Origin: a virus
Length of the DNA stretch: 64,000 nt
Direction: 5' to 3' (one strand)
UHGV virus genome: UHGV-1363143
A model generated the notes under the pieces. That model did no database searches, was not told the origin of the DNA, and saw only the letters and a program-made list of their open reading frames with translations. A program made the position numbers and the translations under genes. Below are positions 6,050-55,018 of the stretch, in pieces (positions within the stretch are counted from its first letter, which is position 1; every line of letters starts with the position of its first letter).

Positions 6050-8218
6050 TTAAAGCTTTTCTTTTTGAGCGTTAGCATAGATTTTTGCGTCGCTATCATT
6101 ATTATGAGCAACTCTATCAGCTCTTTCAGCTTCCTTACCTGCACCAAATCTTTCATCTAAAGCTAAATATCCTGTTATTCTAGATACACCTTGTATTTTT
6201 CTAGAACCACAATTAGGGCATTCTTCTTCAGTTCTTAATAACTGTCCACATTCTTTACAGTATCTAACGTGGAAGTTAATTCCGATATATCCCATATTGG
6301 TATTAGTGAAAGTCCAAGTAATTATTTTTTCTATTTCTTCTGGTGTAGGATAATCATCTAATTCAATATAAGAAATTCTTCCACCATTACATAATTCGTG
6401 GAATGGAGCTTCCTTTTGGATTTTCTCCTTAACAGATATCTTAAATCCTGGATTAATATGATATCCATTAGTATAGTAAGCATGGTCTGTTACTCCTTTT
6501 ATTTCACCGTACTTAGCTTTGTCTATTGCAATAAATCTACCGCAAAGACCTTCTGATGGTGCAGCATAACAGCTCCAATTTAATTTATCTATTTCTTTAT
6601 ACTTATCACAGTATTCTCTAATCATTCTTACTACAGTATCAGCTATTTCTAAAGCTTTTTCATCTTCACCATGATGTTTACCGATAGCAGCCATTAACAT
6701 TTCATGTATTCCAATAAATCCTATTGCATAAGAACCTTGTTTTAAGATAGGTTCAATAGAATCATTTGGCCCAATTTCTTCTGCTCCCACATACATATTA
6801 TTTTCAGTTAAGAAAGGAATGTCTTTTCCTTTTAATTGCTTTAATACACTATATCTGTATAATAATGATTCTCTAGTTAAATCAAGCATTTTTAATAAGC
6901 TATCATATAAGAACTTAATCTTTTCTTCATCTGAACATCCAGTTTCTTTTTGGTGTAATGAAGCTTCTATACCTAATCTAGGTAAATTGATTGTTGTTGG
7001 TGCAATATTGCCCCTTCTCTTAGCTCCTTTAGGCCCATTGATATTATCAATAGTACTTGTTCTACATCCCATTGTGCTTATTCTTACTCCTTGCTCATGT
7101 AAAGGTAAGTTATAAGAAGCATCAATATTTAAGAATGTTGGGTTTAATCTTCTTGAAGCTACTTCACAAGCTATTTTGTATAAGTAGTAATATGGATCAC
7201 CAGGATTTCTATTAACTCCTGACTTAACTGCGAATACCATATTAGGGAATATTAATTGCTCACCAGCACCTAATCCTTTTCCATATTCTATTAATGCATG
7301 CTTACATACTAATGCAGCATCGTCATCCTTAGGTAAACCTATATTTAAAGAAGAGAATACTATTTGAGATCCACTTCTTGATTCCATAGTAGATAAATTG
7401 TACATTACTGATTGCATGGCTTGGCCTACAGCTTTATCAAGCTTAGCCTCAACTCTTGCTTTTATAACATCTTCAGGTTGACCAACCATTAATGCTGAAT
7501 ATTCTTCATATATTTCATCTCTTGTAGCTTTTACAAATACAGCCATATCATTATCGAAGTCATCTATACTTTGTCCTCCGAACATTTGATTTTGAGCACA
7601 TTGTAATAAGATACAAGCTAATTCAGCAGCAACATTAATTCTTTTAGCTGGTCTAATTGTTCCGTATGAAGTTTTAAAACCTGTCTTCAATGGTTCTAAG
7701 CTATGAGAGCAACAATTAAATGTTAAGTTAAAAGCATCTAAATCATGAAGATGATAATCTCCTTGCTCATGTGCTTTCGCAATATGTTTAGGCATGTTAG
7801 CTAAGTTTTGCCACTTATTTGATTCAGAAGCTATTCTTAATAGCTTTGCTCCAAAGTTATTACCAACATTACCATTATCTCTATCAGTATGAACACCAAT
7901 CTTTCTAATAGCTTTCATTATGTCAGATTTAGTTTCTCTTACTTCATTTCTTTCTTTTCTATAATCTAAATATGCATCTTTAGTTAATCTAAATCCATTT
8001 ACATATATAGCTGTTTGAATGAAATCTTGTAGTTTTTCAACTGTGATTTCTGTTTTATTTAACTCTGATATTTTAGCTTCAACTACATCTAAAATAACAT
8101 TAAGAACTTCAGCGTCTATTATTTGTTTTGCACTTTTAGCAGCATTAATAACTGATGCAGCTACCTTTGTTCTATCATAATTTGTTTTTCTACCATCTCT
8201 TTTTATAATTGTAATCAT
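6050..8218 (-). CDS. nrdD: anaerobic ribonucleoside-triphosphate reductase NrdD
   Basis: 722 aa with a C-terminal Zn ribbon (CKECG...CPNCG) and the glycyl-radical motif RITGYLA. Confidence 0.9.
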   Translation of the reverse strand: MITIIKRDGRKTNYDRTKVAASVINAAKSAKQIIDAEVLNVILDVVEAKISELNKTEITVEKLQDFIQTAIYVNGFRLTKDAYLDYRKERNEVRETKSDIMKAIRKIGVHTDRDNGNVGNNFGAKLLRIASESNKWQNLANMPKHIAKAHEQGDYHLHDLDAFNLTFNCCSHSLEPLKTGFKTSYGTIRPAKRINVAAELACILLQCAQNQMFGGQSIDDFDNDMAVFVKATRDEIYEEYSALMVGQPEDVIKARVEAKLDKAVGQAMQSVMYNLSTMESRSGSQIVFSSLNIGLPKDDDAALVCKHALIEYGKGLGAGEQLIFPNMVFAVKSGVNRNPGDPYYYLYKIACEVASRRLNPTFLNIDASYNLPLHEQGVRISTMGCRTSTIDNINGPKGAKRRGNIAPTTINLPRLGIEASLHQKETGCSDEEKIKFLYDSLLKMLDLTRESLLYRYSVLKQLKGKDIPFLTENNMYVGAEEIGPNDSIEPILKQGSYAIGFIGIHEMLMAAIGKHHGEDEKALEIADTVVRMIREYCDKYKEIDKLNWSCYAAPSEGLCGRFIAIDKAKYGEIKGVTDHAYYTNGYHINPGFKISVKEKIQKEAPFHELCNGGRISYIELDDYPTPEEIEKIITWTFTNTNMGYIGINFHVRYCKECGQLLRTEEECPNCGSRKIQGVSRITGYLALDERFGAGKEAERADRVAHNNDSDAKIYANAQKEKL

Positions 8219-17101: not shown

Positions 17102-17941
17102 TTAGTCATGAACTCCAATTATATCTAGCATTTCTTTACAGATATTAACTGTTTCTAGCTCAAGATCGTATTTTTCGCAGATATAAATAGCTGATTTTCT
17201 GCTCAACAGGTCTTTAGCCAACGAATCTCTTTCTTCTTTATCTATATAGCATTGTTCATCTAAAGAATCATATAGTAATTTAAATTTCTTACCAAGTCTT
17301 TTGTATACCTTAGGAATATACGATTTTGATACCTCTGCTTCCTCGGCTATTTCCGCTTGGCTTTTCCCTTTTATTTTAAGAAGATAAACTCTTCTTTCTT
17401 TATCTGTGCAGGCATCTATTAGTTCTAATAAAAGGTAAATAAAGTCAAGCAAGAACTCTTGAAATACTACTACATCATCTATATCACAATTATCTCCCAC
17501 TAAATTCAAGAGTTCTATACTTTTCTTATCCGAAGAAGGATTAGGAATTATAGAATCTAGCGAATAATTCATCTCATTTCTTAATATGTTATTTTTTTGA
17601 GCCTCTAAAGAACGTTTAATCATTCCAAGCTTGGACTCACATACTATAAATATCCATGATGACAATCCAGATCTATCTAGATCACATTTATTTACATTTT
17701 TAAATATGTGCGCCCATAGCTCATTATGCATATCTTCTAGATCGTATTGACCTTTACTCAAAGTATTAATGGCTGGATACCACTTTTTAGATATATCCCA
17801 CACTAATCTATCATACTCTTCATAAAATATAGTTGTTTCCGGTTCTTTACCATCAATAACACACTTCAGAAATTCTTTATTGCTATTAATATTTTTTAAA
17901 TTCATAATTCTCCTCCCCATTTTACAGACACTATTCTGCAT
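17102..17941 (-). CDS. sigma-70 family RNA polymerase sigma factor (small, sporulation/ECF-like)
   Basis: A region 2-like segment, and a region 4 HTH LTDKERRVYLLKIKGKSQAEIAEEAEVSKSYIPKVYKRL. Confidence 0.5.
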   Translation of the reverse strand: MQNSVCKMGRRIMNLKNINSNKEFLKCVIDGKEPETTIFYEEYDRLVWDISKKWYPAINTLSKGQYDLEDMHNELWAHIFKNVNKCDLDRSGLSSWIFIVCESKLGMIKRSLEAQKNNILRNEMNYSLDSIIPNPSSDKKSIELLNLVGDNCDIDDVVVFQEFLLDFIYLLLELIDACTDKERRVYLLKIKGKSQAEIAEEAEVSKSYIPKVYKRLGKKFKLLYDSLDEQCYIDKEERDSLAKDLLSRKSAIYICEKYDLELETVNICKEMLDIIGVHD

Positions 17942-19181
17942 ATCTATACATATATTGCTTGTCTATTTCTGTAACAAATCTCGACTCTTGAGTCCTGATA
18001 TAGCTTCCTTGCTTAAGCGTATAAATAGGCCTTGTAATAAAAAGGAGTTTTTTTGCTCGTGTAACGGCAACATACATTAACCTTCGTTCTTCTTCGTAAT
18101 CTGCCTCTGTAGTTGCTCTATATGAAGGTATTACTCCCTCATTTGATCCTGCAATAATAACAATATTCCATTCCAATCCTTTACTGCTATGCATAGTTAA
18201 TAACTGTACGCAGTTCTCTTCATCCTGATTTTGTTCTGCAATAGTGCTATCTAAATTTATATTGTCGGATAATTCTTCCATACTTTCAAAGTGAGTGGCT
18301 AATTCTATTAGCTCTTGAATATTTTCTATTCTATCGTCAGCAATGTTTTTCTTTTCACTCTCTCTGATATAAGGAATATAACCTGTTATTCTTAGCATAG
18401 TCTCTATTGCAATGTCTGGAGTGTTAGTCTCCATTTCTACAGATAGTTCCCCTACTATATCAAGAAAATCTTTAGCACTTGACTTTGCTTTTCCTGTTAA
18501 ATTTATTTGCTCTAATGCTTCAATTAAATTACATGAATTTGTTTTTGCAAAGTCAATTATTTTCTCGACTGTTTTGTCTCCTAGTCCTCTTTTTGGTGTG
18601 TTTATTGCTCTTGAGAAAGCAATTGTATCATTAGGGTTTATTATTAACCTAAAATAAGAAATTATATCTTTAATTTCTTTTCTACTATAAAAGTTGGTTC
18701 CTCCTACAATTTTATAAGGAATTCTATATTTAAGAAGAGCATCTTCTATTTGTCTAGATAGATAGTTCATTCTATATAAAATAGCTATATCACTGTACTT
18801 GTAACCATATTTTTTAACTGATAATTCAATTAATTTAACTATTCTTGCTGATTCTGCCATAGGATCTTTTTCAGGAAAAAATATAATTGGATTACCTTTT
18901 TCATTATTAGATCTTAAGCTTTTTTCTACTAGCTGTTTATTATTACTTATTAAACTTTTAGAAGCGTCAACTATCATTGAAGTACTTCTATAATTAGTAT
19001 TTAATAGATGTACTCTCATGCCAGTAAATATGTTTCTCATATTCATTACAGCTTCTATCTTAGCACCTCTAAAAGCATAAATGCTCTGGTCATTATCAGC
19101 AATCATACAAATATTTTGGTTTTCTCCTGTAAGAAGATATATTAATCTTAAATCCATTACAGAAGAATCATGACTCTCATC
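17931..19181 (-). CDS. UvrD/PcrA-family helicase, 3' exon (motif II onward: DESHD...QSIYAFRGA...VTRA)
   Basis: The frame stays open upstream of the annotated Met through KKDESHDSSVMDL. Motifs III-VI of superfamily 1 helicases are present. Confidence 0.6.
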   Translation of the reverse strand, partial: DESHDSSVMDLRLIYLLTGENQNICMIADNDQSIYAFRGAKIEAVMNMRNIFTGMRVHLLNTNYRSTSMIVDASKSLISNNKQLVEKSLRSNNEKGNPIIFFPEKDPMAESARIVKLIELSVKKYGYKYSDIAILYRMNYLSRQIEDALLKYRIPYKIVGGTNFYSRKEIKDIISYFRLIINPNDTIAFSRAINTPKRGLGDKTVEKIIDFAKTNSCNLIEALEQINLTGKAKSSAKDFLDIVGELSVEMETNTPDIAIETMLRITGYIPYIRESEKKNIADDRIENIQELIELATHFESMEELSDNINLDSTIAEQNQDEENCVQLLTMHSSKGLEWNIVIIAGSNEGVIPSYRATTEADYEEERRLMYVAVTRAKKLLFITRPIYTLKQGSYIRTQESRFVTEIDKQYMYRYAE

Positions 19182-19761
19182 CTTTTTTGTAAATCTAATT
19201 AATAATATAATGTTTCATCTTTTTAGAATAATCTCCTTTCAACACGAACTTACGTTCTTATCATATTTTAGCATATTTCCAATATATACTCAATAATAAA
19301 TACATTTAACAAAAGTATTTATTATTCACAAAAAAAGCGTAACATTAACAATAATATTAGATTTTTCTTACTTTCGCAAGTGTGGACTATATCATCATCT
19401 CATAATTACTAATTTTAGCCCTATTGCTAGTTCTAGTTTTATGAGAATGCCTCTTGTTTCACGCAGAGTTACCTTTCGGCACTTTGCTAGTCTCTGAACC
19501 TTCTTCCACCCTGGCATATAATTATATGTTACATTGGAAGCTTGGCTGCTGATTCCCCATTATTAAGGTCCTTAGCACCATCATATTTAATGATAGCTTT
19601 TATTTCAGCTTAGACTATCCTTAGTTATTTTTTCTGCCTTTCGGCGACATTCACGCTTGTCCTTACGGACTACGTTGTAGTTAACTTAGGCTTTAGGGAT
19701 TGTTCCAGCAATTAAAGAGGTACGCACACTACGTCACCGTAATATGGGCCGATGAGTTCAG
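19182..19761 (-). ncRNA. candidate self-splicing group I intron (ORF-less) interrupting the UvrD-type helicase gene
   Basis: About 580 nt with no ORF and higher GC than its surroundings. It has two cGAAAg tetraloop hairpins on the minus strand. The 5' exon ends in U (gtt) and the insert ends in G. The exon join restores YQYIV|DESHD (motif II). Confidence 0.5.
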
Positions 19762-20407
19762 CAACGATATATTGGTATTGTCTATTGATTTCAGATTTGA
19801 CTTCAGGGAATTGTTCTAACAATCTAACCGTCTTATAAATTAAATCATCAAAATCTACACAGTTATCTTGCATCATTCTGGAATGATAGAGTTGATAGAG
19901 TTCTGCGAATTGTCTTTCTATTGTATTGGTTGATTCTCTCAACGCTTGACTTGGACTTATTAGCTGACATTTATAATCTGATATTTTCCATAATACCTTA
20001 TCAGCTTCAAAATTGTAACCAGATGTTTTAATGATTTCTTTCATTAATTTCTTGCAATCTTCAGTATCGCATATACTAAAAGATTTAGTAAGTCCAATAT
20101 AATTTGCATATTTTCTTAAAAATCTACTGCATACACTATGGTATGTACCGACCATTATACTATTTGCTTCAGGTCCTATAGTAGCAGTTACTCTTTCTTT
20201 GATTTCCATAGCTGCTTTCTTAGTAAATGTAAATAATATAATTTTATCAGCCGGTATTCCGCTTTTAATCATGTTAGCTGTTCGAACTACTAAGGTAAAA
20301 GTCTTACCAGCTCCTGGACCAGCTATAACCATTGAAGGTCCATGAATATCTATTGCGGCTTCCTTTTGTTCATCATTAAGTCTATTAAATAATTCTGATA
20401 GTTCCAT
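19762..20407 (-). CDS. UvrD/PcrA-family helicase, 5' exon (Walker A GPGAGKT to motif II start)
   Basis: AGPGAGKTFTLV Walker A. The ORF then runs into a nonsense tail (AELIGPYYGDVVCVPL) that is intron sequence. Confidence 0.6.
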
Positions 20408-50074: not shown

Positions 50075-50149
50075 TGGCGGAACTAGTAGGATTCGAACCT
50101 ACAACCTATCGGTTAACAGCCGAGTGCTCCACCTTTGAGCTGTAGTTCC
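50075..50149 (-). tRNA. tRNA-Asn (GUU)
   Basis: Manual cloverleaf with acceptor ggaacta/tagttcc, T-loop GGTTCGAATCC, anticodon loop cuGUUaa, and CCA encoded. Confidence 0.7.
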
Positions 50150-50934
50150 ATAATTCCAGCGTCCGTATGGACCTGGAGATCTCCTTCTATCTTAGATAGA
50201 TGAGCTAATGTAAGCACCACATTTTATAATCCCTTGCATGGATTGGGCAGGCACCATTATTTTTACATGCATGGTTGCATTGACCTAGCTTACTTTTTGT
50301 TCTTTCGGTCTTATTGATTATTACTATCCCACTCGTGAATAGCATATTTGTTTGAAACAATCGCCTGCACAATGCAAGCCCCAGAAAGAGTTTATCTTTC
50401 AAAATTAATGCAAGGTGGGGTGGCGTATCCCACATCTCTAACCATAACAATATATGTAGTATAGACTGCCTGTTTCTACTTCTTGCATTTTTATATCTAA
50501 TTGCTTACTTGAAAAACACGAGCTAATTACATTAGCTACTAAAACTCATAAGCATAAATATACCTTCTTATAAGAGTTCCTAATCTATGTCTAAATAAGA
50601 AGTATATTAGTTTCATAAGGATATAGATTAGGTTTCACCTTACTTTTTATTATTGCTTGAAAAAACCCTAAAAATTACTAAGCAATATATATATTCTTCT
50701 CACTTCCGAAACCAGCACTCCATGTCCTTCGAATATATAGTTTTTTTGTTTCGCTGATCTGGTCCTCTATGCAAAACTTTAAAGGGAAATTTGCTTACCG
50801 CCACAGTTCCTTCCTGCTCGTCCATAAGCTATTAAGTAGATAAATTACTCCTACTTAACTAGTGCGTCTCCAGTGAGCATAGTAAATCAGGCCAATCAAA
50901 TCAGCTAAATACCAGAGGCTTGAGAGGTTCTATT

Positions 50935-51008
50935 TGGAGCTCCTACTCAGAATCGAACTGAGAACAGAAGATTACAAGTCTACCGTTTTACCTTTAAACT
51001 ATAGGAGC
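50935..51008 (-). tRNA. tRNA-Thr (UGU)
   Basis: Cloverleaf with acceptor gctccta/taggagc, anticodon loop cuUGUaa, and CCA encoded. Confidence 0.6.
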
Positions 51009-51164
51009 ATATAATACTTTCGGTGTGCTACAGAAATCTAAGTTTCTGTTAATAGGCAAGGCTGTCTATATCAGGTATTCAGTAATTATGTACACTTTTA
51101 ACTGAACCATACTATATATCCCTACACGCTACTCTTAACTATAAGAACACCGAAAATATTATAA

Positions 51165-51239
51165 TGGTACTCCATGGGGGACTCGAACCCCCGATACACG
51201 ATAGAAAGTCGTGTGGCTTAACCACTTGCCGAATGGAGC
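51165..51239 (-). tRNA. tRNA-Glu (UUC), probable
   Basis: Cloverleaf with T-arm ggggg/ccccc and anticodon stem cacga/tcgtg; the loop cuUUCua has an unusual U37. Confidence 0.5.
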
Positions 51240-51318
51240 ATAATTTGTGCTATCTCTTTTAGCTTGTACTTCGCCAAGGATGATAGCTATCCTTATCTGT
51301 ACAAATTACAGATTTCTC

Positions 51319-51390
51319 TGGTGCAGATTGCTGGAATCGAACCAACCCTTATAATCTTATAGAAAACGCTCTACCTTGAGCTAATCTGCA
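51319..51390 (-). tRNA. tRNA-like element with intact acceptor, D and T arms but no foldable anticodon stem (possible pseudo-tRNA)
   Basis: gcagatt...ggttcgattccagcaatctgcacca carries the right length between the D and T arms, but the segment UUUUCUAUAAGAUUAUA cannot form a 5-bp stem. Confidence 0.3.
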
Positions 51391-52418
51391 TATTATATTT
51401 CCAGAGCTTTCAGATCCTATCTCTGGTACTCAACTTTTGCAGCATTATTGATTCTCTGCTTATCCACATTCTCTTGAATGTATTGAGTTATGCCTGCCTT
51501 GTTTAATGAGTGGCTTATCTCATCTAATAGTACACTACTCTACACCATTGATTATATCAACCTTGCGGGCTGTTCAGGCTGCTACCCCTTATACGCTCTC
51601 CGATATAGAACAATCAAGCTTTTGCGAAGCTATCATGCGCTTCATTCACTTTTCAGTGTGAAGCATTAAGACACTTTCATGCACTACGAGGATGAACTTT
51701 CGCTTTTATATAGAATTAATATCTGTAAATTCTTAAATATTGTTTTATTTCCCAAAACATATAGCTTAAATTCATCATTCATTAAATTTTCAAACTGTAG
51801 ATGTGTCATCCTATCAGCTCGCTTCCCTTTTGAGGAAGTAAATACTGGACACCTACATAGCTTTCACTCAACTAAGTTACTAACTGGTAATAAATCATAC
51901 TCTAGGATACCTCCGTCTCTCAACTTCTAAGGTCCTATTTCATTTTTATTACTGGCCAATGCTCTTGCCTGTTAAACTCGAACTACTAACCTTCTGCTAT
52001 AAATAGTTTATTTCATTAGTTTTGGTGTGTGCTATCTGATTACCAGTCAGAAACTCCTTCAGAGAGTATATCCCCTACTTTCTTACCAGCGTTGCCCATA
52101 AGCGAGCTTTCGCACCTAACTTATAAAACCTTATCCAATAATCGTCTTTATCTCTTCCGCCTACTGAATAACATTTAAATTTATGCAGATTGCTTGAATT
52201 AACCTAATATTTCAAGGCGAGAATTTGTTAAATTCCCTTTACGCACATCACTGTACGCTATTCATGTCAAGCCATGTTTACTTATTTTTTTTATAGAACC
52301 TAGTACAGATTCTTGTATGTAATTCCTACCTCTATTACATACTAGGCTCTTGCCTACCGATGTTTTCCTTATTTAAAACTAAGTACTGAAAAGAAAACTC
52401 ATAACCAAAAATCGTACT

Positions 52419-52494
52419 TGGTGAAGGTAGAAGGGTTTGAACCTTCGGCCCCAGCATTAAAAGTGCTATGCTCTACCAACTGAGCTATACCTTC
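52419..52494 (-). tRNA. tRNA-Lys (UUU)
   Basis: Cloverleaf with D-arm gctcagttggtagagc, anticodon loop cuUUUaa, and CCA encoded. Confidence 0.75.
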
Positions 52495-52501
52495 ATATTA
52501 T

Positions 52502-52578
52502 TGGTAGTGGATATAAGAGTCGAACTTATCACCTTCTGCGTATCAGGCAGATGCTCTAACCAAATGAGCTAATCCACT
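52502..52578 (-). tRNA. tRNA-Ile (GAU)
   Basis: Cloverleaf with anticodon stem tctgc/gcaga and loop cuGAUac. Confidence 0.75.
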
Positions 52579-52584
52579 ATATTA

Positions 52585-52669
52585 TGGTGGGAACTGATGG
52601 AGTCGAACCACCCGAGCTAAAGCAACAGATTTACAGTCTGCCCCGCTACCATCTACGGTATAAATTCCC
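52585..52669 (-). tRNA. tRNA-Tyr (GUA), type II (long variable arm)
   Basis: 85 nt, anticodon loop cuGUAaa, long variable arm. Confidence 0.65.
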
Positions 52670-52763
52670 GTATTGACATTGTTAATTGGCTAAATTATTA
52701 TAATTGTAAATGTACTATACTTACAAAGAACTAGATCAATCTTCGGATTGGTCTTTTTCTTAT

Positions 52764-52850
52764 TGGCAGGGGCTGTAGGATTCGAACCTACGTGGTGTTG
52801 TGCACAATGGTTTTGGAGACCACCGCCCTCGACCTCTAGGCAAAACCCCT
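52764..52850 (-). tRNA. tRNA with Trp anticodon (CCA) and an atypical 15-nt variable arm
   Basis: Acceptor and anticodon arm (gguggu-CUCCAaa-accau) resemble bacterial tRNA-Trp, but the gene is 87 nt with the insert ugugcacaacaccac before the T-arm. Confidence 0.5.
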
Positions 52851-52985
52851 GTAAATCTCCCGATTAGTTTAAAGACATTTATGGGACTGGTCATTAGAGA
52901 GGTCTTATGTATAAATTAAAACGTTATGCATAAATATATTATGTTAACATCTATAAAAAGACTACTGATTTGAAAAACTTTTTTA

Positions 52986-53072
52986 TGGCGGAGAGTCTGG
53001 GACTCGAACCCAGAAGCCATTACTGACCAACAGTTTTCAAGACTGTCTGACTACCAATTATCACAACTCTCC
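52986..53072 (-). tRNA. tRNA-Ser (UGA)
   Basis: 87 nt with acceptor ggagagt/actctcc, anticodon stem acagt/actgt, loop cuUGAaa and a long variable arm. Confidence 0.7.
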
Positions 53073-53090
53073 ATGTTTATAGGAGAAAAC

Positions 53091-53170
53091 GAAATAGGTG
53101 ATAGGAATTGAACCTACACTTACTGCCATCCCTATCTCTAGCTGGCCTTGCTTCATTCTCCTGTTGCAAC
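53091..53170 (-). tRNA. tRNA-like remnant (T-arm-like gtagg-ttcaatt-cctat only)
   Basis: An 80-nt spacer between tRNA-Gln and tRNA-Ser contains a T-arm-like hairpin and a 7-bp aggagaa/ttctcct pairing, but no canonical cloverleaf. Confidence 0.25.
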
Positions 53171-53245
53171 TGGCGGAGGTGGAAGGGATTGAACCTTCGA
53201 ATGATGGAATCAAAATCCATTGCCTTACCACTTGGCGACACCTCT
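53171..53245 (-). tRNA. tRNA-Gln (UUG)
   Basis: D-arm gccaagtggtaaggc (Gln-like), anticodon loop uuUUGau, weak 1-72 pair, and G73. Confidence 0.65.
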
Positions 53246-53446
53246 ATATAAAATGGCAATTTTACCGTTTGCCAAACGTTCTATGGTTTATACAAAAACT
53301 CATATCGTAAAATTTAAACGGGCTTAAGTGCCCTAAATTCTGGCATTTCACCACGGGTATTTAGCAACCCAGGATTTTTATTATTGAATCTAATAAATTA
53401 AGATCCGTTCTAAGCACTGCAAAAAAATCTTAAAAAAATTTCGCTT

Positions 53447-53522
53447 TGGTCGGAGTTACAGGACTCGAACCTGTGATCTCATGGTCCCAAACCATGCACC
53501 TTACCATCTAGGCCAAACTCCG
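53447..53522 (-). tRNA. tRNA-Pro (UGG)
   Basis: cggagtt acceptor, anticodon stem catgg/ccatg, loop uuUGGga. Confidence 0.75.
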
Positions 53523-53531
53523 ATATATAAA

Positions 53532-53623
53532 TGGCGGAGGACACAGGATTCGAACCTGCGGAGGAACTTTCGTCCCTCGAATGCTTAGCAAGCACCTGCC
53601 TTAAACCTCTCGGCCAATCCTCC
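53532..53623 (-). tRNA. tRNA-Ser (GCU)
   Basis: 92 nt with ggaggat acceptor, loop uuGCUaa and a long variable arm. Confidence 0.7.
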
Positions 53624-53713
53624 ATATTAATAGCTCATTTTGGTCAGTTGAGCTAAACTGTAGTCTATAAGACTAAAAAATGAACATTGGAATTTAATAT
53701 TGAATTGAATTAG

Positions 53714-53790
53714 TGGCGACTCACAAGGGGATCGAACCCTCGACCTCTGGCGTGACAGGCCAGCACTCTAACCATCTGAGCTAGTGAGCC
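53714..53790 (-). tRNA. tRNA-Asp (GUC)
   Basis: Anticodon stem ctggc/gccag with loop cuGUCac. Confidence 0.75.
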
Positions 53791-53796
53791 ATATTA

Positions 53797-53885
53797 TGGT
53801 GTCGTGAGAAGGATTCGAACCTCCAACCACCTGAGTCTTGTTAATGGAGCTCCCTCAGTGCGTATACCAATTCCGCCACCACGAC
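53797..53885 (-). tRNA. tRNA-Leu-like gene with an expanded 18-nt anticodon loop
   Basis: Leu-type D-arm gcggaattggtatacgc and good acceptor/T arms, but ctgag-[ggagctccattaacaaga]-ctcag replaces the 7-nt loop. Confidence 0.4.
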
Positions 53886-54000: not shown

Positions 54001-54034
54001 GAAAATAAAAAAGCTGGGAATTTTTTATCCCAGC
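54001..54034 (-). terminator. rho-independent terminator after the endolysin gene
   Basis: Hairpin gctggga-N8-tcccagc followed by UUUUUUAUUUU on the minus strand. Confidence 0.6.
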
Positions 54035-54040
54035 CTTATA

Positions 54041-55018
54041 TTACAGCTTTGCTAATAAATCATTAGCTATTGCATTAATGTTTCTTGACCATGTGGTACC
54101 TTCGCAATATTTTGTATTTACATTCCATATGCTAGGTCCATTATAATGAGCTCCTCCTTCAGTAAGGTAAGCAGTATTAATAAGATTAGCTATATAATTT
54201 AAGCTCTCTCCCCAATTATCAAATCTTCTCCATGAGTTACCTTTTTTAACTCCACCAATATTATTATATGTTCTAGCTAAATAAGATCTTCCATGTCCTG
54301 ATTCTTCCGAGTTAAGTGCTATTAAGAATATTGCATTTACATTGTATTTCTTTTCTGCATAATAATATGCTTTTGATAATGATTGTAATGCACTGCCCTC
54401 TAACATTTTATGAATTTGAGACTCTGATAAATTACTTAATTCTCTCAAGTTATAAGGATTATAATGAGGAATTCCATCTACTTGTTTTTGTACTTTTGGT
54501 TCCTTATATACTTCATATGGTGGGTTTTCTTGATATTGTTCAACTAATGACATATCAATAAAACCTTCTTTGCCATTATAATTAATTTTTAACCAGTTCC
54601 ATTGTCTTTCAATTATCTCAAAAGTCATACCTTTTCTAAATAAAAGAATTACTTCTGAATCATAATTAGGTTCTGTTCTAAAACGAGAATAGTCAGCGAT
54701 AACTTGTCCATATTTTTGATGTTCAGTTTTTAATCTTTGCTCTTCTTCTAACCTTTCTTGCTCTAGTCTTTTTTGTTCAACCATTTCTAAATGTTTCTCA
54801 TAAATGTTTTTGGGACTCATAAAAATAGGATTTGTAAGAGATTGGTCTTCTATTGATAGCTCTATTGCTGCAGGTTCTAATTTATTATTAATACGCATGT
54901 TATTACTTGCAGTATCAAAACAATGTACTGGCAAAAATGTAGATGTATATGCATATAAACCAGCTAAGCATTTAGCTAAATGTGTCATAAAAACACTCCT
55001 TTCTGATTTCTCCCTCAT
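54041..55018 (-). CDS. endolysin: N-terminal SH3-like domain + GH73 N-acetylglucosaminidase
   Basis: C-terminal LNSEESGHGRS...YNNIGGVKKG...WRRFDNWGESLNYIANLI matches the GH73 (FlgJ/LytD-type) catalytic region. A central SH3-like segment reads FRKGMTFEIIERQWNWLKINYNGKEGFID. Confidence 0.6.
   Translation of the reverse strand: MREKSERSVFMTHLAKCLAGLYAYTSTFLPVHCFDTASNNMRINNKLEPAAIELSIEDQSLTNPIFMSPKNIYEKHLEMVEQKRLEQERLEEEQRLKTEHQKYGQVIADYSRFRTEPNYDSEVILLFRKGMTFEIIERQWNWLKINYNGKEGFIDMSLVEQYQENPPYEVYKEPKVQKQVDGIPHYNPYNLRELSNLSESQIHKMLEGSALQSLSKAYYYAEKKYNVNAIFLIALNSEESGHGRSYLARTYNNIGGVKKGNSWRRFDNWGESLNYIANLINTAYLTEGGAHYNGPSIWNVNTKYCEGTTWSRNINAIANDLLAKL

Follow-up and report, generated by a model that had tools for sequence, protein, structure and literature searches.

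A tRNA-like gene with an enlarged anticodon loop

The 64,000-nt stretch of the virus genome UHGV-1363143 that was analysed here (the window) carries on its minus strand, at positions 53797-53885, an 89-nt tRNA-like gene in which 18 nt occupy the place of the 7-nt anticodon loop. A sequence-only reading had drawn attention to this loop on a Leu-type scaffold and had proposed either an expanded-loop tRNA of the frameshift or suppressor kind or a non-decoding tRNA mimic. Comparison with related phages revealed one and the same anticodon arm on two different tRNA bodies, and of the proposed options the evidence favours the non-decoding mimic. The window copy, hereafter type 1, reads on the minus strand GUCGUGG UG GCG GAAUUGGUAUA CGC A CUGAG GGAGCUCCAUUAACAAGA CUCAG GUGGUU GGAGG UUCGAAU CCUUC UCACGAC A CCA, and its parts are as follows.

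53797-53885 (minus): complete type 1 tRNA-like gene, 89 nt, with A73 and CCA encoded; detected by ARAGORN, the Rfam tRNA model and a covariance model
53879-53885 (minus): 5' strand of the acceptor stem, GUCGUGG, pairing with UCACGAC at 53801-53807 (7 pairs, one of them G-U)
53860-53876 (minus): Leu-type D-arm GCG/GAAUUGGUAUA/CGC, with a 3-bp stem and an 11-nt loop containing G18 G19
53854-53858 (minus): 5' strand of the anticodon stem, CUGAG, invariant in the window and in the related phages L015 and L012
53836-53853 (minus): 18-nt loop GGAGCUCCAUUAACAAGA, with the 8-nt palindrome GGAGCUCC at its start
53831-53835 (minus): 3' strand of the anticodon stem, CUCAG
53825-53830 (minus): variable region GUGGUU, 6 nt, without the long arm of class II tRNAs
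53808-53824 (minus): T-arm GGAGG/UUCGAAU/CCUUC, with a 5-bp stem and a UUCRANY loop
53797-53807 (minus): acceptor stem's 3' strand, UCACGAC, followed by the discriminator base A73 and the encoded CCA

Type 1 thus possesses a 7-bp acceptor stem, a discriminator base, a 3' CCA, a D-arm containing G18 G19 and, in the T-arm, a UUCRANY loop, and both the sequence and ARAGORN agree with the earlier description of the acceptor stem, Leu-like D-arm and T-arm as canonical. These parts, together with the length of 89 nt, it shares with canonical (class II) tRNA-Leu, and in BLAST searches its first 30 nt matched cyanophage tRNA-Leu genes at 87-90%. It lacks, however, the 7-nt loop with U33 and purine 37 that a 5-bp stem closes in a canonical tRNA, as well as the long class II variable arm of tRNA-Leu: the loop has 18 instead of 7 nt and no U33, and the variable region is as short as had been noted from the sequence (6 nt). 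At the anticodon position a sound helix is formed solely by CUGAG/CUCAG, a perfect 5-bp stem closing 18 nt. The same helix, with the 18 nt left unpaired, appeared in the minimum-free-energy fold (RNAfold), and the Rfam tRNA model placed an insertion of about 20 nt in the anticodon loop, in line with the loop and stem that had been described.

ARAGORN reported a tRNA-Leu(GAG) at exactly 53797-53885 by way of a forced model with mismatches in 2 of the 5 anticodon-stem pairs, G33 in place of U33, C37 and a variable arm with two A.G mismatches. When introns were allowed, it adopted the CUGAG/CUCAG stem and removed an arbitrary 11-nt 'intron' to arrive at Phe(AAA), again without U33. In a local search, the Rfam tRNA model (RF00005) scored type 1 at 40.4 bits (gathering score 29), and the element was not listed by the gathering scan of the whole window; our own covariance model R1 scored it at 115.9 bits. 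Automated anticodon calls in phage arrays, such as the Leu(GAG) of ARAGORN here, can therefore be artefacts.

Within the loop, the palindrome GGAGCUCC is predicted to form a self-duplex of -18.3 kcal/mol. Of the shuffles that preserve composition, 0.66% reach this strength, and chance alone would place an 8-nt palindrome in 3.4% of loops composed in this way.

One anticodon arm on two tRNA bodies

The 89 nt of type 1 recur identically in the related contigs L005-L008, L010 and L011 (86 nt in L011, at a contig end), which derive from ERR1293818, ERR1293820, ERZ1755708 and ERZ1755345. Since these identical copies come from at least five independent assemblies, the element is not an assembly artefact. 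A sister phage with a 77% identical endolysin (L015) carries a type 1 gene at the same site with three changes, namely A50G at the last base of the loop and G56A and U57G in the variable region (which reads AGGGUU), none of them in a helix. Its loop is identical to the window loop at 17 of 18 positions, and the element as a whole is 96.6% identical, compared with 91.1% for the surrounding 926 nt.

Two further relatives (L012 and L014, endolysin 82% identical) have no gene at the first site of the array; about 900 nt further, after a tRNA-Met, they carry an 86-nt gene, termed type 2, with the sequence AUCCAGA UA GCGU AGUGGUA ACGC A CUGAG GGAGCUCCAAUAACAGA CUCAG AUUGAU GUAGG UUCAACU CCUAC UCUGGAU A CCA. 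Its body has a class I D-arm (4-bp stem GCGU/ACGC and 7-nt loop), the acceptor strand AUCCAGA and the T-stem strand GUAGG, and it departs from type 1 in the T loop and variable region too. Folded without constraints, type 2 has as its minimum-energy structure precisely the cloverleaf, with the 17-nt loop open. The anticodon arm, by contrast, differs from that of type 1 only in a single substitution and a 1-nt deletion, both in the loop. In our alignment, the 29 columns formed by the arm and the preceding A contain one mismatch and one 1-nt indel, whereas identity outside the arm is about 66%. BLAST joined type 1 and type 2 copies over just about 74 nt centred on the arm. In L012, L014 and a third relative, L004, the loop (17 nt) is nearly identical to that of the window copy.

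When the window, L015 and L012 sequences were aligned, all 20 base pairs formed in all three (100% pairing), and sliding the pairing partners by 1-3 columns reduced pairing to 34-55%. Four pairs are changed on both sides relative to L012, three in the acceptor stem and one in the T stem. Each phage lineage holds at most one intact copy, either of type 1 or of type 2, never both.

The family is real but small and restricted to one clade. Searching IMG/VR for the exact 18-nt loop returned 3 matches, all by chance and inside coding DNA, and a stem-anchored pattern allowing loops of 7-30 nt had no match in the same database. With a pattern built on the shared core, the sole true match in IMG/VR, JGI metagenomes and GTDB genomes was the phage contig L004 (L020 and L030 are the same contig); according to model R1, the remaining 16 loci contain no copy of the element, and ARAGORN detected no tRNA in the 10 loci scanned. 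BLAST searches with both body types against INPHARED phages retrieved just generic similarities to tRNA halves, and those against PLSDB plasmids, with the endolysin and the type 1 region as the only queries, gave short, low-identity matches alone.

A proposed displayed loop and its rival explanations

The reading that we favour, and to which we give about an even chance, is that the element is a non-decoding tRNA-like RNA, whose body would provide processing and stability and whose loop with GGAGCUCC would be the working part. Because the arm is the best-conserved part on two bodies, each of which keeps a complete, compensated cloverleaf with CCA, the fold would appear to be needed generically and the loop specifically. 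We infer the transcription and processing of the element and the role and partner of its loop as follows. The gene would form the first unit in the transcript of the phage tRNA operon, and the intact tRNA body (acceptor stem, D-arm, T-arm and A73-CCA) would lead to excision and stabilisation by the host tRNA machinery, presumably RNase P and 3' trimming nucleases. Selection would act on the anticodon arm, a 5-bp stem showing a single-stranded loop of 17-18 nt, GGAGCUCCA(U/A)UAACA(A)GA. This loop would most likely be a recognition surface that binds a protein, another RNA or a second copy of itself; as it holds a strong and rare palindrome, loop-loop dimerisation is one concrete possibility, with two copies pairing through the 8 nt of GGAGCUCC in a kissing dimer. 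Like most genes of phage tRNA arrays, it would be an accessory gene that is gained, moved and lost between close relatives.

RNAs that use a tRNA fold for purposes other than decoding include the non-proteinogenic tRNA-Gly of Staphylococcus, the bacterial Y-RNA-like YrlA and engineered scaffolds in which a cargo replaces the anticodon arm. The element may resemble them in its action, with a tRNA fold serving processing and stability and a role that is not decoding, but differs from them in having no sequence or Rfam kinship (YrlA 16.2 bits, gathering score 69) and in that its cargo is an open loop of 17-18 nt. A bolder suggestion, which we put forward tentatively and regard as the less likely outcome, is that of a natural 'tRNA scaffold', in which any tRNA body could display the selected 17-18-nt loop and the RNA would dimerise via GGAGCUCC or capture a host or phage factor, which would make it a small RNA for regulation or counter-defence concealed in a tRNA array. 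The usual interpretation of a phage tRNA array is a set for codon supply or anti-defence, with odd members dismissed as pseudogenes or given a forced anticodon; that the abnormal part is the conserved part here points to array RNAs that use the tRNA fold beyond decoding.

Several observations weigh against a selected function of this kind. The element is clearly dispensable: it is cleanly absent from the first site, through an indel of tRNA size, in L016 and in L004 (IMG/VR, 241 kb, endolysin 83% identical), where only the 5' two-thirds of a type 2 copy are kept, broken at the T-arm. L017 has a decayed tRNA-like sequence at the first site, in which 5 of 7 acceptor pairs remain, the D stem is missing, the palindrome is lost and the anticodon region consists of a 3-bp CAG/CUG stem around an 18-nt loop, GAUGGUUACAUAAAAAGA. 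The more distant relatives L018 and L039-L049 hold no copy of the element. The distinct intact sequences number three, all from one narrow phage clade (endolysins at least 77% identical), so that conservation could partly reflect a short divergence time, and recombination among the array's members, instead of selection, could account for the sharing of the arm. Neither the anticodon stem and palindrome nor the D stem varies among the three sequences, which leaves no covariation at these places. Moreover, the type 1 cloverleaf (-22.9 kcal/mol) lies 2.9 kcal/mol above the minimum-energy fold, with a fold z-score of only -0.71. Apart from the locus itself, the window contains no antisense target of at least 11 nt complementary to the loop, and no partner protein for the loop was identified among the window proteins in a domain survey.

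The same points bear on the reading of the element as a pseudogene, that is, a former tRNA of a fast-turnover array that suffered an insertion or rearrangement at the anticodon and lingers without function, its arm having moved to the second body as array members recombined or underwent gene conversion. This main rival stays alive because the sample is small, the clade narrow and the losses repeated, and because array members may recombine; we consider it possible, if rather unlikely. Presence and absence vary among close relatives, with the truncated copy in L004 and the decayed copy in L017; the family is confined to one clade in IMG/VR, JGI metagenomes and GTDB genomes; and further weak or odd tRNAs lie in the same arrays, namely a Tyr(AUA) of 34.5 bits, a Tyr(GUA) of 31.9 bits, a minihelix-like remnant in L017 and a 95-nt tRNA in L043. 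A pseudogene should, however, lose its helices, whereas 20 of 20 pairs are intact in three sequences, four of them through compensatory changes. It is also the defective part and not the body that is best conserved across the two bodies, the three changes in L015 avoid all helices, and the element has diverged less there than its surroundings. True decay in this family is represented by L017, which the window copy does not resemble.

An improbable alternative treats the element as a tRNA gene that a small insert interrupts, from which a phage or host activity would remove 10-11 nt to leave a functional tRNA whose loop has 7 nt. Phage tRNAs with conserved, unexplained inserts have been described: the closest published case is that of Lak megaphage tRNAs, whose 'enigmatic introns' do not differ between cohorts and are processed in an unexplained way (Devoto et al. 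2019, PMC6784885). Like these, the element is a tRNA gene of a large gut phage with an unexplained insert that is identical across samples, and genomes with and without it occur among close relatives. In Lak phages, however, one tRNA exists with and without its insert and its type and anticodon can be assigned after removal, neither of which applies to the element; conversely, its insert-bearing arm is common to two tRNA bodies. After three of the eight contiguous excisions from type 1, the Leu anticodon CAA stands before G37 A38. Yet none of the eight gives U33, in type 1 or in type 2, and all eight per variant fail the combination of U33 and a purine at 37, so that the small processed intron named in the sequence-only reading finds no support. 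Three Leu-type genes from IMG/VR (L100, L123 and L067) served as positive controls and passed the same excision test (L100 gives CUUAAAA, L123 AUUAAGG): removal of the insert regenerates a Leu loop and the long variable arm of 16-19 nt is kept, because of which their inserts may be mini-introns. The 1-nt deletion in type 2 additionally destroys the CAA reading (CAAGA to CAGA) on a body that is not Leu-type. Folds and inspection revealed neither a bulge-helix-bulge nor any internal helix in the loop, and 11 extra nt are too few for a group I (at least about 200 nt, P1-P9) or group II intron, with no Rfam intron match, which upholds the initial exclusion of group I and archaeal introns. An insert-free allele of either body was not found, the relatives lacking the whole gene and not just the insert, and no RNA ligase or splicing endonuclease is present among the window proteins (about three-quarters of the genome lies outside the window).

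For a decoding tRNA that would use its expanded loop for frameshifting, quadruplet reading or UAA suppression, the chances appear slightest. The loop does contain the UUA and UAA triplets that had been pointed out, and UAA is present in the loop of all variants, including the decayed copy in L017. In E. coli, A73-CCA and a D-arm of the Leu type play a role in recognition by leucyl-tRNA synthetase, and their presence could permit leucylation of type 1. Expanded-loop tRNAs with 8-9 nt, such as the yeast mitochondrial tRNA-Thr(UAG) and frameshift suppressors, have a loop of more than 7 nt in common with the element, but they add 1-2 nt and still decode (PMC7609411), whereas the element adds 10-11 nt and has no anticodon framing. 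Natural decoding loops found in our literature search reach at most 8 nt (PMC7609411), compared with about twice as many, 17-18 nt, here, and a search of the literature for expanded or enlarged anticodon loops in phages yielded nothing matching. No triplet of the loop is framed by U33 or a purine at 37, and UAA, the sole conserved one, is flanked by U or A on its 5' side and C on its 3' side; the base preceding it differs between the types; the register of the candidate triplets is not conserved between the two variants (CAUUAACAAGA versus CAAUAACAGA); and the body, hence the amino-acid identity, differs as well. Given that the standard code yields long open reading frames (ORFs) in the window, no suppressor is needed, and the frameshift or suppressor proposal of the sequence-only reading finds no support.

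It is likewise very unlikely that the arm acts as DNA, with the nested inverted repeats CTGAG...CTCAG and GGAGCTCC forming a protein-binding or recombination site within tRNA genes. At the DNA level the arm is conserved in both of its contexts and its sequence is strongly palindromic, and the anticodon-loop DNA of tRNA genes is a classic integrase target. A DNA site would, however, have no need of the complete, compensated cloverleaf with CCA found in both contexts; no further copies of the motif occur in the window or in the loci, and no integrase lies adjacent.

Genomic setting and related viral tRNA genes

The element opens a minus-strand array of 14 tRNA calls (50075-53885), and its neighbours are listed below.

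54041-55018: endolysin gene, directly upstream of the element
54010-54037 (minus): intrinsic terminator of the endolysin gene
53714-53790 (minus): tRNA-Asp(GUC), 6 nt downstream of the element
51412-51857 (minus): GOLLD RNA (Rfam, 171.8 bits), inside the tRNA array
50407-50489 (minus): skipping-rope RNA (Rfam, 58.2 bits), inside the tRNA array

With the endolysin terminator upstream, the element would start a new transcription unit, the tRNA array, and both the terminator and the array setting are compatible with its expression. The 125-nt gap upstream of the element is conserved in L004, L015 and L016 and contains no sigma-70 consensus promoter. In relatives without the element, tRNA-Asp(GUC) is the first gene of the array. 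GOLLD was also found in L004 (162.9 bits).

The window has a GC content of about 30%, its relatives come from human gut metagenomes as contigs of 150-240 kb, and among cellular proteins the closest homologues of the endolysin belong to Clostridium; the source is probably a jumbo phage or phage-plasmid with a gut Clostridium as host. Among the window proteins, the domain survey recognised topoisomerase II subunits, NrdD/NrdG-like proteins, a primase, helicases, RecA-like, Rad52 and Mu Gam proteins, together with thymidylate kinase, GroEL, ClpP/ClpX, peptide deformylase, an actin-like partition protein and ParA. RNA-handling enzymes were not among them: the survey found no RNA ligase or kinase, splicing enzyme or aminoacyl-tRNA synthetase.

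To place the Leu-type D-arm in a wider context, IMG/VR was scanned for the exact D-arm 20-mer GTGGCGGAATTGGTATACGC, which returned at least 119 loci (L050-L168). Among the matches listed, about 83 are ordinary tRNA-Leu genes, and about 22 of 113 viral genes combine a normal acceptor stem, T-arm and A73 with 48-119 nt (in two cases 23 nt) between the D- and T-arms. These insert-bearing genes are often found in arrays together with normal neighbouring tRNAs; most of them escape ARAGORN, and the Rfam tRNA model scores them at 33-47 bits. Examples are:

L100, 118-235 (minus)
L102, 2539-2643
L156, 2536-2637
L143, 764-865
L085, 13273-13371
L123, 8638-8759
L067, 5796-5935

Some of these genes behave in the manner of a tRNA-Leu with an intron; in others, such as L102, L156 and L143, the segment between the arms is a long hairpin or a large loop with a closing stem. 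The insert-bearing genes (L069 and others included) resemble the element in the identical D-arm 20-mer, the 7-bp acceptor stem, the T-arm, A73 and an abnormal segment between the D- and T-arms; they differ from it in that their inserts are of 48-119 nt and often structured, and in that none of those listed encodes CCA. These data suggest that Leu-type tRNA scaffolds with inserts are widespread among viral contigs, where their annotation is poor. If the scaffold suggestion is true, they would be members of the same strategy with larger cargo. The 89-nt element with its single loop bears on the unexplained 'introns' of megaphage tRNAs.

One of these genes, L069 1752-1921 (plus), is a 170-nt Leu-type tRNA-like sequence, whose first hairpin, ACCAG CUUGAGAGCUCCAUU CUGGU, has a 15-nt loop and which holds about 93 nt of structured RNA between this hairpin and the T-arm. 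Its loop shares GAGCUCCAUU with the window element, the sole such case among the matches listed. Since a scan of IMG/VR for the motif GAGCTCCA after a Leu-type D-arm found only L069, a wider sequence family is not established.

Further unusual tRNAs were observed in the array and among the relatives. The 'tRNA-Trp(CCA)' at 52764-52850 (minus) has 87 nt, with a 10-nt insertion as variable arm and a D-arm different from that of the 75-76-nt tRNA-Trp of L018, L043 and L048. Its counterpart in L012 (8506-8592) carries a compensatory change from G-C to A-U in the anticodon stem, because of which this tRNA looks functional; it would be a class-II-like Trp tRNA. Directly 3' of GOLLD lies a weak 71-nt 'tRNA-Tyr(AUA)' (51319-51389, minus) with two U.U pairs in the anticodon stem; a similar weak tRNA match follows GOLLD in L004 (10889-10956), and L015 has an unassignable tRNA at the equivalent site. 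The tRNA-Tyr(GUA) at 52585-52668 (minus) has A.C and U.U mismatches in its acceptor stem.

In L017, a 59-nt minihelix-like unit (7178-7236, plus) consists of a 7-bp acceptor stem, a T-arm and CCA, with 16 nt replacing the D- and anticodon arms, and is situated upstream of a phospholipase C-like gene, itself an insertion that separates the endolysin from the tRNA array. The odd 95-nt tRNA of L043, a more distant relative (6606-6700, plus), has an AU-rich anticodon region, in which a stem of 4 bp encloses about 10 nt, and a variable arm in which 5 bp enclose 12 nt; no anticodon could be assigned to it by ARAGORN. Elsewhere in the window, a UvrD-type helicase is split into a C-terminal and an N-terminal ORF (17931-19157 and 19712-20407, minus) about 550 nt apart; the gap may contain an intron, an intein or a homing-endonuclease insertion, or the gene may be a disrupted one.

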